A DNA stretch of 26,517 nt from positions 1-26,517 of the IMG/VR virus record IMGVR_UViG_2778261459_000001; one strand, given 5' to 3'. How positions within the stretch are numbered: position 1 is the first letter of the stretch; the number at the start of each line of letters is the position of its first letter. This DNA comes from a virus. Its lineage: Duplodnaviria; Heunggongvirae; Uroviricota; Caudoviricetes. Position numbers and translations under genes: made by a program. Positions 1,090-26,517 of this stretch are shown in pieces. The notes beneath the pieces were generated by a model, which did no database searches, had not been told where the DNA came from, and was given only the letters and a program-made list of their open reading frames with translations.

Positions 1090-1174
1090 AGTCAGAGATA
1101 ACAATCAACTAATACTGTTTTGTTGATTTTTGCTTGTAATTGGCGTTCTGGTCTGATTTTTGTGGAGTAAGTTG

Positions 1175-1558
1175 ATGCGTGATATTCAGATGGTTCTTGA
1201 GCGTTGGGGTGCGTGGGCGGCTAATAATCATGAAGATGTGACCTGGTCGTCCATTGCCGCCGGTTTTAAGGGATTAATTCCTTCAAAAGTAAAATCTCGC
1301 CCGCAATGTTGTGACGATGACGCGATGATCATTTGCGGGTGCATGGCCCGTCTGAAAAAGAACAACAGCGATTTACACGATTTATTAGTAGATTATTATG
1401 TATGTGGTATGACATTCATGTCACTGGCAAGTAAGCATTGCTGCTCGGATGGTTATATCGGGAAAAGGTTACAGAAGGCTGAGGGCATAATTGAAGGGAT
1501 GTTAATGGCATTAGATATCCGGTTAGATATGGATATCGTTGCTAATAATTCTAATTGA
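1175..1558 (+). CDS. quuD: late-gene antiterminator Q (QuuD type)
   Basis: Translation from ATG 1175 ([24 protein letters not shown]...[11 protein letters not shown]...) matches DLP12 QuuD from memory. Position between rusA/ylcG and the lysis genes is canonical for Q. The track's 1160 start is a TTG extension. Confidence 0.9.
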
Positions 1559-3417: not shown

Positions 3418-3633
3418 ATGAAATCCATGGATAAGTTAACAACGGGTGTCGCCTATGGTACCTCAGCAGGTAGTGCCGGGTACTGGTTTTTACAGTTGCT
3501 CGATAAAGTCACGCCCTCACAGTGGGCGGCAATAGGTGTGCTGGGTAGCCTGGTATTTGGCCTGCTGACGTACCTGACAAACCTTTATTTCAAGATTAAA
3601 GAAGATAAGCGCAAGGCTGCGAGAGGTGAATAA
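3418..3633 (+). CDS. essD: class II holin / pinholin (phage 21 S-type)
   Basis: 71 aa, [31 protein letters not shown]...[32 protein letters not shown]: two hydrophobic segments and a charged C-terminus; resembles the S21 pinholin / DLP12 EssD from memory. SD GAGGTGGGG precedes the start. Confidence 0.9.
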
Positions 3634-4130
3634 TGCCTCCATCATTACGAAAAGCCGTTGCTGCTGCTATTGGTGGCGGAGCAATTGCTATAGCATCAGT
3701 GTTAATCACTGGCCCAAGTGGTAACGATGGTCTGGAAGGTGTCAGCTACATACCATACAAAGATATTGTTGGTGTATGGACTGTATGTCACGGGCATACA
3801 GGAAAAGACATCATGCTCGGTAAAACGTATACCAAAGCAGAATGCAAAGCACTCTTGAATAAAGACCTTGCCACTGTCGCCAGACAAATTAACCCGTACA
3901 TCACAGTCGATATACCGGAAACAACGCGCGGCGCTCTTTACTCGTTCGTCTACAACGTGGGTGCTGGCAATTTCAGAACATCGACGCTTCTTCGCAAAAT
4001 AAACCAGGGTGATATTAAAGGCGCATGTGATCAGCTACGGCGCTGGACATACGCTGGCGGTAATCAATGGAAAGGACTGATGACTCGCCGTGAGATTGAG
4101 CGTGAAGTCTGTTTGTGGGGGAAACAATGA
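3633..4130 (+). CDS. rrrD: SAR (signal-arrest-release) endolysin, lysozyme family
   Basis: 165 aa. N-terminal Gly/Ala-rich weakly hydrophobic segment ([20 protein letters not shown]) typical of SAR domains, followed by a lysozyme-like core. Start overlaps the holin stop. Confidence 0.9.
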
Positions 4131-4588
4131 GCAGAGTAACCGCGATTATCTCCGCTCTGGTTATCTGCATCATCGTCTGCCTGTCATTGGCTGTTAATCA
4201 TTACCGCGATAACGCCATTACCTACAAAGCCCAGCGCGACAAAAATGCCAGAGAACTGAAGCTGGCGAACTCGACAATTACTGACATGCAGATGCGTCAG
4301 CGTGATGTTGCTGCGCTCGATGCAAAATACACGAAGGAGTTAGCTGATGCGAAAGCTGAAAATGATGCTCTGCGTGATGATGTTGCCGCTGGTCGTCGTC
4401 GGTTGCACATCAAAGCAGTCTGTCAGTCAGTGCGTGAAGCCACCACCGCCTCCGGCGTGGATAATGCAGCCTCCCCCCGACTGGCAGACACCGCTGAACG
4501 GGATTATTTCACCCTCAGAGAGAGGCTGATCACTATGCAAAAACAACTGGAAGGAACCCAGAAGTATATTAATGAGCAGTGCAGATAG
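4127..4588 (+). CDS. rzpD: i-spanin Rz (inner membrane spanin subunit)
   Basis: ATG 4127 overlaps the endolysin stop (ATGA). N-terminal TM segment ([20 protein letters not shown]), then a charged coiled-coil-like periplasmic domain. Confidence 0.85.
4347..4529 (+). CDS. rzoD: o-spanin Rz1 lipoprotein, embedded in the +1 frame of Rz
   Basis: 60 aa, [24 protein letters not shown]...[15 protein letters not shown]...: lipobox VVGC and a proline-rich mature part, entirely inside the Rz gene in another frame. Confidence 0.85.
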
Positions 4589-23788: not shown

Positions 23789-24205
23789 ATGAACAATTAC
23801 GTATGGTCAGCATTACATGTTTCATTTTTCCCTAAGGCGATGTTGCAAGATTATGAATCTGCCGGATGGAATCTTTCCGATGTGGTGGATGTTGTTGATG
23901 ACATTTTTCAAACATACAGATCAATGCCACCAGAAGGTAAAATTCTTGGGGTTGTTGATGGCATGCCTGCATGGATTGACAAGCCGCCAGTGCCAAATAG
24001 CGTGTTGCTTTCAGACGAACTTGCGCGGCTTGCATCAGAATATAAAAATGACAGAGTTCAATTGAATGACGCATACGTTGCGGCAATGGTAAGCGATGGT
24101 CCATTAGAGCAAACTAAGCAGCAGGCGGTGAGGGATCAAATTGTTCAAAGAAAATCTCAGTACACAGCAGATATAGCTGCAGCAAAATTAAAATATCCCA
24201 TTTAA
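23789..24205 (+). CDS. tail fiber assembly protein (Tfa/Caudo_TAP-like)
   Basis: From ATG 23789 (MNNYVWSALHVSFF...): motifs ...AGW..., PPEGK and DGMPAWIDKPP typical of tail fiber assembly chaperones; directly follows the fiber gene. Confidence 0.7.
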   Translation: MNNYVWSALHVSFFPKAMLQDYESAGWNLSDVVDVVDDIFQTYRSMPPEGKILGVVDGMPAWIDKPPVPNSVLLSDELARLASEYKNDRVQLNDAYVAAMVSDGPLEQTKQQAVRDQIVQRKSQYTADIAAAKLKYPI

Positions 24206-24215
24206 GGTGGACATC

Positions 24216-24380
24216 ATGGAAACACAATCAAACGAAGAACAAAAACAGAGCCAGCAACAGCAGGATTCTACCGTAAAATTCTGTCCGATATGTGGCTCAA
24301 CAATGCATCAGCAAGATTATCTGAATGGGAAATGGTGGTTTTGTGATGATGAAGAATGCGGGTTTTTTGAGCCCGTCTAA
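24216..24380 (+). CDS. small zinc-ribbon protein (54 aa, CPICG...x16...CDDEEC)
   Basis: AAGGTGG SD 5 nt before ATG 24216. METQSNEEQKQSQQQQDSTVKFCPICGSTMHQQDYLNGKWWFCDDEECGFFEPV has four Cys in two pairs. Below the track cut-off; followed by a terminator. Confidence 0.5.
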   Translation: METQSNEEQKQSQQQQDSTVKFCPICGSTMHQQDYLNGKWWFCDDEECGFFEPV

Positions 24381-24402
24381 AGTATTTGTTTGCAGGAATA
24401 AA

Positions 24403-24433
24403 AGCCCTCTCTGGAGGGCTCATATTTATTTTG
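24403..24433. terminator. bidirectional terminator (AGCCCTC-TCTG-GAGGGCT flanked by T-runs on both strands)
   Basis: Between the convergent zinc-ribbon gene (+) and acyltransferase gene (-); followed by CATATTTATTTTG on the plus strand and TTTATTCC on the minus strand. Confidence 0.5.
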
Positions 24434-25508
24434 CGTATTTCTTTCTAAACCCAAGAAATGGCTTTTCAATCAACTCAAAACATATCTTAGAAAAGATAAG
24501 AATTGCAGGTAGTAAAATCAAAAAATTAATGACAGCATTAACATTATCATTGTCGATAAACCTCGGAACTCCAAATGTTTTATGGAATGAGTAAAGAACC
24601 ACACCATGCAATATATATTCAGAAAAGCTTACCTCACCAAGTTTAGATAATCCATTATCTATAATGGCAGGTATTTTTATGCTTGACGATAAGTAAGTAA
24701 ATACAAAAATACCCCACATGCAAGCCTCCAGATATGATAAAGAACTTACATATGGTGTTGGAATGTACCATAAACCCTCAGATCTAAGTGTTAAAAGAGA
24801 AAAGAAGACAATTGCAGAACTGGCGATGATAAAGATCGGATTAGCGAATTTATCCTTATGGTTTATATATAGATATCCAAACACCATCCCAATTAATAGC
24901 TGATCAAATCGACCAAGCATTGTTAAGTAGTAATAATGATTGTTCAGATATGAATCCGACCCTAATTCCCCACCATAGATTGTAACGATCATGGTTCTCC
25001 AGGCAAGCCAAAAAAGAGACAGATACACAATATACTTCACACCATATCTGTTAAGAAAAAGAGCTAGGAAAGGAAATATTAAGTAAAATTGAAATTCTAC
25101 TGCTATAGTCCACGTTTGCCCGAAATGAGCCAGCAACGGTGATGTTTGCAAATTCGAGAAAAGGAACAAGGATAAAGCATCAGAAAATGTGGCAGTACCT
25201 CTAGATAGAGACATGGCGGTAATCCATGCTACAGAAAGGAGTGGGAAGATGCGAATAAATCTATTGAAGATAAAAGGCTTATAAGAAATATCCTTTTTTC
25301 CGCCATTCGATATGATGGTGAATAGAAATCCACTAAGCACCAAAAATAGCGTAACTCCAGTATCACCAGCAAGCATGAAATTTATAAATGGATTGTTCGA
25401 TTTCTTTCCTCCGAACGCCGTATAAGAATGAACAAAAACAACAAATGTTGCTGCAAAAAAACGAAGGTGGTCAATCCTTGACAGGTATTGTGAGTTTAGA
25501 CTTTTCAT
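24426..25508 (-). CDS. integral membrane acyltransferase, family 3 (Oac/OafA-like O-acetyltransferase)
   Basis: 360 aa, about 10 predicted TM segments. N-terminal signature RIDHLRFFAATFVVFVHS (Arg...His motif of the acyltransferase-3 family). Gene is strongly AT-rich relative to the flanking phage genes and is divergently oriented. Confidence 0.85.
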   Translation of the reverse strand: MKSLNSQYLSRIDHLRFFAATFVVFVHSYTAFGGKKSNNPFINFMLAGDTGVTLFLVLSGFLFTIISNGGKKDISYKPFIFNRFIRIFPLLSVAWITAMSLSRGTATFSDALSLFLFSNLQTSPLLAHFGQTWTIAVEFQFYLIFPFLALFLNRYGVKYIVYLSLFWLAWRTMIVTIYGGELGSDSYLNNHYYYLTMLGRFDQLLIGMVFGYLYINHKDKFANPIFIIASSAIVFFSLLTLRSEGLWYIPTPYVSSLSYLEACMWGIFVFTYLSSSIKIPAIIDNGLSKLGEVSFSEYILHGVVLYSFHKTFGVPRFIDNDNVNAVINFLILLPAILIFSKICFELIEKPFLGFRKKYAK

Positions 25509-25628
25509 CTTTATCCACTTGAAAATGAAAAAATATTAGCATGTAAGACGATGTCGCGCCACGGATCATTAGTCGTAAAAAGCACGAGTTTTTTGTTGCA
25601 TGCACTGATTGACGCCATCGATCAATAA

Positions 25629-25648
25629 TACTGTATGCACATACAGCT
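25629..25648 (+). promoter_or_regulatory. LexA (SOS) box TACTGTATGCACATACAGCT
   Basis: CTGT-N8-ACAG palindrome (CTGTATGCACATACAG) matching the E. coli SOS-box consensus TACTGT(AT)4ACAGTA, about 20 nt upstream of the UmuD'-like start; GGAGGTGG SD at 25655-25662. Confidence 0.6.
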
Positions 25649-25665
25649 TACATTGGAGGTGGTCC

Positions 25666-25953
25666 ATGGGGTTCCCGTCGCCAGCGGCAGACCACATTGA
25701 AGAGCACATATCACTCGATAAGCGCCTTATCGCACATCCTTCTTCCACGTATATGATGATATCCGGAACGACATACCTTCGAGCCGGAATCATGAAAGGA
25801 GCCATGCTCATCGTCGACTCATCGCTGACACCAAAAGATGGCTTCCTGCTTGTCTGTGCGGTTGATGGTGAGTTCAGGATCATGCGCTACAGGACACATC
25901 CTCAACCTTGCCTTGAAAACCCTGAAAATGGGAGGGGGGAGCCGTTACTGTAA
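25666..25953 (+). CDS. UmuD'-like (HumD-like) protein, S24 peptidase fold with substituted catalytic dyad; C-terminally short
   Basis: From ATG 25666: [38 protein letters not shown]...[22 protein letters not shown]... aligns to E. coli UmuD from Gly25 ([37 protein letters not shown]...LLIVDS...AAVDGEF). The UmuD GDSM Ser position is Thr (GTTY) and the Lys position (VKKL) is Met/Arg (IMRY). About 20 C-terminal residues are missing relative to UmuD'. Confidence 0.65.
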   Translation: [95 protein letters not shown]

Positions 25954-26027
25954 GTATCCCGCATAATCGTGCCATTCATATTTAGAGATCATCCGGCATA
26001 ATCAATCTGGCAACAAAGGAGATCGCT

Positions 26028-26169
26028 ACGCATAAAGCCCGTTTTACTGAGCATCAGATCATCGCTGTGATTAAGTCAGTTGAAGCCAGACGAACCGTTA
26101 AAGATGTCTGCCGGGAGGCCGGTAACTCTGAAGCCACCTACTACAACTGGAAGTCCAGATACGGCGGCA
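26028..26169 (+). mobile_element. IS3-family (IS407-group-like) transposase OrfA 5' fragment, start codon degenerate (ACG), truncated after the HTH
   Basis: AAGGAG SD, then ACG where ATG is expected. Translation (T)[46 protein letters not shown] matches the OrfA HTH motif of IS3-family elements from memory (MKKRFTEQQII...SFYTWRAKFGGME). Similarity ends abruptly at about 26170. Confidence 0.5.
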
Positions 26170-26256
26170 TGGAAGACATATCGGGTATTGCTGAACCGGG
26201 TTGATACATCAGTAGCACCGAATATTGAGTGGCCTGCAGAACCAGGCACAATGTAA
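26164..26256 (+). pseudogene. tail fiber assembly protein (tfa) 3' remnant
   Basis: Frame +1 translates to ...[30 protein letters not shown], the conserved C-terminal signature of Tfa proteins (lambda Tfa ends ...[29 protein letters not shown]). No corresponding N-terminal part upstream. Confidence 0.6.
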
Positions 26257-26517
26257 GCGAAAAATGAAAACCGTAGCACGTCGTATGCAAGATCGTGCGC
26301 GGCTGGCTGGTGAACTTCCGATAGTGCGAGTATTGAATTATTTCCAACTGTTATCGATTTTGCGTATTTTTTGCATGAGAGGATTTTTACCTCCTCCCAC
26401 CGATCCTCCATGGCTTTACGCCAGTGTCTCTGGTCTGCTATGTGCCAGGAGCAGCCATTGCTAAGTCCATCCTGTATTGTGCAGGTCAGCTCGTTTTTAA
26501 AGAGTCCGGCCATCATC

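Follow-up and report, generated by a model that had tools for sequence, protein, structure and literature searches.

A small acidic zinc-ribbon gene that accompanies one C-terminal domain of phage tail-fibre assembly chaperones

A small gene for an acidic zinc-ribbon protein directly follows the gene for a tail-fibre assembly protein (Tfa) in a lambdoid prophage, and the two recur together across unrelated phages. The DNA analysed, referred to here as the window, is the whole 26,517-nt stretch of IMG/VR record IMGVR_UViG_2778261459_000001 (Table 1). The pair is most likely a two-gene tail-fibre chaperone system whose second partner is undescribed in searchable papers and has no curated family. 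The zinc-ribbon gene belongs to the tail-fibre module and is not stray cargo, because its position behind the same type of chaperone is kept whatever cargo follows. The favoured reading, to which we give a probability of roughly 0.55, is that its product is a late-operon, translationally coupled accessory factor or co-chaperone of Tfa, as the genomic context suggests. More tentatively, and at slightly less than even odds, a widespread Tfa subclass may be a two-protein system in which the Tfa helical bundle needs an acidic zinc-ribbon subunit for fibre folding or release.

Table 1. Coordinates of the features discussed, in window positions unless residues or codons are named
Feature	Position	Strand	Basis or remark
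Q antiterminator gene	1160-1558		
Lysis genes	3633-4588		
Tail fibre protein, 337 aa	22774-23787	+	Pfam PF21882, E = 4.2e-10; phrog_1396, E = 1.9e-84
Tail-fibre assembly protein (Tfa), 138 aa	23789-24205	+	phrog_188, E = 1.7e-15, residues 1-98
Tfa N-domain	~residues 1-65	+	resembles P2 G / Mu U-type Tfa
Tfa C-domain	~residues 66-138 (23984-24202)	+	two-helix hairpin; co-occurs with the zinc-ribbon gene
Shine-Dalgarno site AAGGTGG	24204-24210	+	sequence
Zinc-ribbon gene	24216-24380	+	ORF and translation, selection, AlphaFold model, homologues
Disordered tail	codons 1-19 (24216-24272)	+	variable, acidic, polar
Conserved C4 zinc ribbon	codons 20-54 (24273-24377)	+	KFCPICGSTMH...WWFCDDEECGFFEPV
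Terminator-like hairpin	24402-24421	both	terminator scan and RNA fold
Acyl_transf_3 gene	24426-25508	-	convergent with the zinc-ribbon gene

The window is a lambdoid prophage that encodes NinX, RusA, a Q antiterminator, lysis genes, a terminase, head genes and a Mu-like baseplate. Its tail fibre protein carries a gp53-like C-terminal domain (PF21882) and is the presumed client of the Tfa chaperone, for which RefSeq gives the product name 'tail assembly chaperone'. Similarity of this Tfa to P2 G and Mu U-type proteins is detectable up to about residue 95, and in tblastn searches it matches P2-like and Mu-like phages over residues 1-89 only. The helices of its C-domain span residues 69-101 and 106-135 in the AlphaFold model.

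The first-pass annotation had described a 54-codon ORF with a strong Shine-Dalgarno site, a Gln/Glu-rich N-terminus and a C4 zinc ribbon, lying between the last tail gene and a bidirectional terminator, and each of these features is confirmed. The ORF starts with an ATG at 24216, ends with a TAA at 24378-24380 and encodes METQSNEEQKQSQQQQDSTVKFCPICGSTMHQQDYLNGKWWFCDDEECGFFEPV. The Shine-Dalgarno site lies 5 nt 5' of the ATG and overlaps the Tfa stop codon (TAA, 24203-24205), an arrangement typical of translational coupling; Tfa and the zinc-ribbon gene are co-oriented and separated by 10 nt. A scan of the + strand, which is a weak test, found no sigma-70-like promoter 5' of the zinc-ribbon gene. 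The hairpin 3' of the gene, AGCCCTC-TCTG-GAGGGCT, is G+C-rich, has T-runs on both strands and folds as RNA with -17.7 kcal/mol (z = -2.6 against shuffles). It reads as an element that would end the late (tail) operon on the + strand and the acyltransferase transcript on the - strand. Rfam returned no RNA family at this locus.

Residues 2-17 of the protein contain seven Gln and three Glu, and its four cysteines, C23, C26, C43 and C48, are spaced CxxC-x16-CxxxxC. AlphaFold models residues 20-54 as three-stranded with pLDDT >90 and residues 1-19 as disordered. The two Cys knuckles sit on a small beta ribbon, as in the C4 zinc-ribbon structural class. The predicted fold is a C4 zinc ribbon with a disordered tail, which would presumably bind zinc, and the net charge of the protein is -7.

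An ORF as short as this could have arisen by chance between the tail genes and the terminator, and several records indeed leave it uncalled or call another frame. The pattern of substitutions argues otherwise. The homologue in E. coli MB10 shares ~90% DNA identity with the window gene and differs from it by 10 synonymous and 3 non-synonymous changes (dN/dS ~0.05), while two other homologues compared differ in the core by 10 synonymous changes and by no non-synonymous one. Because synonymous changes far outnumber non-synonymous ones against the E. coli homologue, the gene evolves as a protein. The frame, the four cysteines and the start context are moreover kept in about 45 loci, down to ~30% identity, and the AlphaFold ribbon is confident. 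On the strength of the dN/dS value and the conservation pattern, the chance-ORF reading was rejected as vanishingly improbable. The gene is real and under purifying selection, and its frame is conserved among related prophages.

The ORF had also been taken to be unannotated, which is true of several records and not of RefSeq, where it is called as the hypothetical protein WP_021548946.1 (E. coli NT1F10). Full-length DNA matches occur in 14 of 5,426 complete E. coli genomes, NT1F10 included, and the other 13 likewise carry an annotated hypothetical protein under the match.

To place the protein among known families, profile and homology searches were performed. A profile search of 1.84 billion representative proteins returned only 32 matches at E < 1e-3, nearly all of them stand-alone, 44-66 aa long and with the motif KFCPICGxxM...WWxCxDxxCG[FY]xEP[VI]. 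Across 30 aligned members the first three cysteines are invariant and the fourth nearly so. With about 40 relatives in all, the earlier label of an orphan does not hold. Megablast of annotated phages with 2 kb around the gene gave no match, and one distant subgroup of the family had no viral match.

Some members have three cysteines only (P0026, P0034, L053 3355-3513 and L061 544-678). An Asp replaces the fourth Cys in these proteins (the second in L061), in a GD or YDG context; either the Asp coordinates the metal, or the site has been lost in these proteins. Two longer proteins, P0018 (232 aa) and P0039 (143 aa), contain several tandem zinc ribbons. P0018 has four ribbon repeats, each followed by a WN motif, and its last ribbon resembles the zinc-ribbon family, a hint of distant relationship with Lar-type (restriction-alleviation) ribbons. 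In contrast to these Lar-like repeats, the window protein lacks a WN motif after its ribbon. Two genome contigs, L026 and L029, were rejected as relatives because they carry unrelated ribbons, N-terminal in longer NUDIX hydrolase-like proteins, and four short partial matches (L027, L028, L030 and L031) were set aside from the loci.

The zinc-ribbon protein falls in no curated family. No Pfam family reached its threshold, and PHROGs and NCBIfam gave sub-threshold, generic ribbon matches only. Scores stayed below the gathering threshold for Zn_ribbon_Top1 (PF01396, 15.4 against 32 bits), Ogr_Delta (PF04606, 13.8 against 26.3, residues 23-31 only), Lar (PF14354, 14.8 against 28.6) and YacG (NF002362, 16.3 against 79, residues 5-35 only). 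Lar was matched weakly by 3 of 30 family members, and the Lar-like PHROG families gave E = 0.013-0.077 with the window protein. When the 30 members were scanned one by one, their matches scattered over many generic ribbon families. Nor does the protein match any Tfa family (Caudo_TAP / phrog_188); only its upstream neighbour does.

The small C4 zinc proteins of phages include P2 Ogr, P4 Delta and Mu Com, and they raise the question of a regulatory role. P2 Ogr is a late transcription activator whose gene sits after the tail genes, next to attP, and Mu Com is a translational activator. A nucleic-acid-binding regulator of this kind, or a ribbon that binds single-stranded DNA as in topoisomerase I, would agree with the CxxC-x16-Cx4C spacing, which resembles that of the Ogr and topoisomerase I ribbons, with the weak matches to Zn_ribbon_Top1 and Ogr_Delta, and with a position at the end of the tail operon that recalls P2 ogr. 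One source even labels a homologue 'ssDNA-binding Zn-finger/Zn-ribbon topoisomerase 1'.

The charge of the family points the other way. All 42 of 42 members are acidic, with net charges of -1 to -9 and a median pI of 4.2, whereas nucleic-acid-binding ribbons are basic; this uniform acidity argues against DNA or RNA binding and for protein binding. The ribbons of topoisomerase I (PF01396) are several basic, ssDNA-binding repeats inside an enzyme, in contrast to the acidic, stand-alone zinc-ribbon protein, and the Ogr_Delta match covers the first knuckle only. Ogr and Com have no tie to Tfa, while the zinc-ribbon family is tied to it, and a regulator would leave the link to one Tfa C-domain unexplained. 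For late transcription, a Q antiterminator gene is already present in the window. An Ogr-like late activator was therefore rejected on the acidity of the family and the presence of Q, and a nucleic-acid-binding role in general is highly improbable. The transcription modulator proposed in the first-pass annotation is accordingly disfavoured, because the whole family is acidic.

Genomic neighborhood analysis provides the main evidence for a link to Tfa. The census covered about 45 loci of the pair, which are not the whole family. Scans with zinc-ribbon motifs yielded 16 viral and 2 genuine genomic loci. At every locus found through zinc-ribbon motifs (24/24), the next upstream ORF is a Tfa by profile match (E = 1e-22 to 1e-75), and -1 to 15 nt separate the two genes. 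Four distant environmental members show the same Tfa pairing and have more same-strand genes 3' of it. From the zinc-ribbon side, a Tfa with the specific C-domain lies directly upstream in 28 of 28 loci. Of 26 distinct homologous loci, 24 have an SD-like motif that adjoins the Tfa stop, no more than 20 nt from the start codon.

The pairing also holds when the search begins from the chaperone. Erwinia phage AnSW2-5-P-A and the 141-kb Vibrio phage K412 were matched through the Tfa C-domain alone, and each has an unannotated CxxC...CxxC ORF 1 nt 3' of the Tfa stop. Viral contigs found with the C-domain carry the zinc-ribbon ORF in 9 of 9 evaluable cases, a count that excludes three further contigs ending at the Tfa stop. 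C-domain homologues from the protein search have a Cys-knuckle ORF in 5 of 5 contexts, one of them uncalled. P0098, the most distant C-domain match, has a 44-aa ORF 4 nt 3' of the Tfa stop, and P0099, whose DNA was not read, has a called 48-aa gene 11 nt 3' of Tfa. The total from the C-domain side is a Cys-knuckle ORF in 17 of 17 read loci, or 18 of 18 if the called gene of P0099 is counted. As a negative control, five phages that share only the Tfa N-domain were inspected, and none (0/5) has a Cys-knuckle ORF.

What surrounds the pair varies widely. The order fibre, Tfa, zinc-ribbon gene of the window is found again in E. coli MB10, with gtrABC in the place of the acyltransferase; in the Edwardsiella phages Edno5 and GF-2, where an integrase follows; and, together with a Pam3-like baseplate, in three prophages of enterobacteria, of which two can be seen to adjoin host genes. 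Across the paired loci the fibres are gp53-like, Gly_rich_2 or T7-tail-like, the Tfa N-domains belong to at least four unrelated types, and the baseplates are Mu-like or Pam3-like. The genes 3' of the pair encode an acyltransferase, gtrABC, an integrase, lysis functions or other + strand phage proteins, or the pair is followed by host DNA. Two loci, L004 and L006, illustrate this: their zinc cores are 100% identical and their Tfa C-domains 76%, against 21% for the Tfa N-domain and 20% for the fibre tip. Between the window and L004, the zinc core is 91% and the Tfa C-domain 65% identical. Only the Tfa C-domain and the zinc-ribbon core are constant across the paired loci. Because the rest varies and the C-domain stays constant, the zinc-ribbon gene travels with the generic half of the chaperone.

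This distribution is that of a member of the tail-fibre module, adjacent to and co-oriented with fibre and Tfa genes across unrelated phages. The first-pass annotation had framed the locus as a cargo region, and that framing does not stand: the gene keeps its place behind the same type of chaperone with other cargo or with none, and also in phages where further structural or lysis genes follow. A phage moron, or lysogenic-conversion cargo gene, would have its own promoter and terminator, a patchy distribution and independence from its neighbours. The zinc-ribbon gene does not fit this description, because it lies 10 nt from Tfa with its Shine-Dalgarno site over the Tfa stop, and is present at every C-domain locus.

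The same pairing bears on the proposal of the first-pass annotation that such a protein inhibits a host protein or counters host defence. On this account, a small inhibitor made late in infection would bind and block a conserved host protein, much as YacG or acidic anti-restriction proteins do, and its gene would merely ride at the 3' end of the tail-fibre module. YacG, a gyrase inhibitor, acts by binding another protein and not nucleic acid. The zinc-ribbon protein is small and acidic, and it has a strongly conserved core with exposed aromatics (WWF, FF). This core is more conserved than the Tfa C-domain, as expected for a conserved host target, and the main partner could thus be something more conserved than Tfa, such as a host protein. 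In several prophages no other gene lies between it and the attachment site, a place where accessory genes tend to collect. Weak similarity to YacG and Lar exists; these too are small zinc-ribbon proteins, but their genomic context differs, and all of the family similarities are sub-threshold. PADLOC gave no match for the zinc-ribbon protein.

A host-directed role leaves the pairing with a single Tfa C-domain unexplained, in all of the loci counted above from either side, and the pairing holds across unrelated backbones and in mid-module positions. The promoter-like site of its own that such a gene might have was not found. Accessory genes are normally patchy, whereas the zinc-ribbon gene was never seen missing. 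If a host protein is the target, one would have to explain in turn why the gene is so strictly linked to a chaperone domain. We consider a host-directed inhibitor or anti-defence factor unlikely: the earlier proposal is weakened by the invariant Tfa pairing, and nothing positive came to light in its support.

For an accessory factor of Tfa, the modular structure of the chaperone offers a possible site of action. Published structures describe Tfa proteins as modular: the fibre is bound by a variable N-domain, and trimerisation occurs through a conserved helical domain at the C-terminus (PMC9608196). The zinc-ribbon gene would be the last gene of the late operon, probably driven by the Q antiterminator of the window. 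Its translation right after that of Tfa, from a Shine-Dalgarno site overlapping the Tfa stop, would cause both proteins to be made together. The zinc-ribbon protein may act on the C-terminal helical trimerisation domain of Tfa, and not on the fibre-specific N-domain or the fibre tip. As a co-chaperone or cap, it might stabilise, time or release the Tfa helical bundle during fibre-tip trimerisation. We infer both the binding to Tfa and the effect on fibre assembly.

The acidity of the zinc-ribbon family, together with a last Tfa helix that is basic in 4 of 5 representative C-domains (+2 or +3, pI 9.4-9.8), speaks for this reading. An AlphaFold model of a Tfa-zinc-ribbon fusion, run as a monomer with an unpaired and, for Tfa, shallow alignment, reached a pTM of 0.43; each domain is confident alone (ribbon pLDDT 95-98), and their mutual arrangement carries no confidence. 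No natural Tfa-zinc-ribbon fusion was present among the protein-search matches. Co-divergence of the pair by itself proves nothing, because adjacent genes are co-inherited. Literature searches gave no paper that connects zinc ribbons or zinc fingers with tail-fibre assembly proteins, the zinc-ribbon gene goes unmentioned in the Edno5 paper, and searches for expression or virion proteomics data on the protein returned none.

The obligatory linkage to Tfa would be expected equally if the zinc-ribbon protein were a virion component. With or without Tfa, it would then stay at the distal fibre end, as the Tfa proteins of Mu and Ur-lambda do, and serve as a structural cap and not as a transient chaperone. 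Some Tfa proteins do remain on virions (PMC9608196). The core of the zinc-ribbon protein is nearly invariant from Vibrio to Escherichia across differing fibre tips, however, which is unlike receptor-contacting parts, and the searches for virion proteomics came back empty. A place in the virion is decidedly improbable and, being a sub-case of the accessory-factor reading, is not a true alternative to it.

Among known systems, those of Mu (U, TfaMu), P2 (G), lambda (Tfa) and Pam3 (gp25) come closest: Tfa belongs to the same module and occupies the same operon place, directly 3' of the fibre gene. In the window, the partner gene is itself a Tfa by its match to phrog_188, with an N-domain similar to that of P2-like and Mu-like Tfa, and it shares their modular design, in which the N-domain varies and binds the fibre and the helical C-domain is conserved. 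Known Tfa systems have been described with one chaperone gene each, whereas here a second, unrelated zinc-ribbon gene of 44-66 aa always follows. Its product resembles Tfa proteins neither in sequence nor in fold.

Phage T4 offers a precedent: folding of its fibres requires more than a single small helper, with gp57A and gp38 as accessory chaperones. Like the zinc-ribbon protein, gp57A is small; it is helical and has no known metal site. Neither T4 gene follows a P2/Mu-type Tfa gene in a translationally coupled pair, and no homology of the zinc-ribbon protein to gp57A or gp38 was detected with Pfam or PHROGs. Both T4 helpers are absent from mature virions (PMC9608196).

Phages, pyocins and fibre-based diagnostics are retargeted by exchanging tail fibres and their chaperones, and without the right helper a fibre often fails to fold. 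If the zinc-ribbon protein is a required partner of one class of Tfa, it would have to be co-expressed for the fibres concerned, and a metal-binding component would be added to the tail-fibre assembly pathway. In present records the gene usually appears as hypothetical, in a wrong frame or not at all. It can be recognised by a simple annotation rule: a small Cys-knuckle ORF directly 3' of a Tfa with the specific C-domain.

The annotation gaps take several forms. The zinc-ribbon ORF is absent from the records of AnSW2-5-P-A (L032 2733-2873) and E. coli JANLKB010000019.1 (L052 3393-3548), and the record of K412 (OZ196335.1, L033 2754-2903) has a 31-codon CDS in another frame over it. In E. coli MB10 and P0003, the gene is called from an upstream start that overlaps Tfa, giving 94-95 aa. 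Three IMG/VR predicted proviruses (L047, L048 and L049) end exactly at the Tfa stop, and many other contigs end within a few hundred bases 3' of the zinc-ribbon gene; provirus boundary calls seem to clip the gene off.

The slot 3' of the zinc-ribbon gene holds surface-modification cargo that varies between relatives. It is occupied by the Acyl_transf_3 gene in the window and by a cluster of gtrA, gtrB and a third gene in E. coli MB10 (L002 6269-8881). Another Acyl_transf_3 gene lies 3' of the zinc-ribbon gene, on the same strand, in an unrelated environmental phage contig (L060, 3306-4286). In E. coli NT1F10 and 13 similar genomes, a block of fibre fragment, Tfa, zinc-ribbon gene and acyltransferase (L001 4625-7359) lies directly 3' of rusA, within a DLP12-like remnant, and adjoins a truncated stfP. 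This type of degraded prophage has kept the block and lost the heads and baseplate.

Elsewhere in the window, an S24 peptidase (UmuD/HumD-like) ORF lies at 25609-25953 on the + strand. It is followed by ORFs at 26076-26516, where the matching E. coli record in RefSeq has fragments annotated as transposase and tail-fibre assembly; the stretch 25609-26516 has the look of a decayed junction where the prophage ends. Near the other end, a complete porin gene of Gram-negative type (1747-2889, - strand; Porin_1, E = 2e-151) sits on the opposite strand and is flanked by the Q antiterminator gene and the lysis genes, a position that resembles that of nmpC in DLP12-type prophages.
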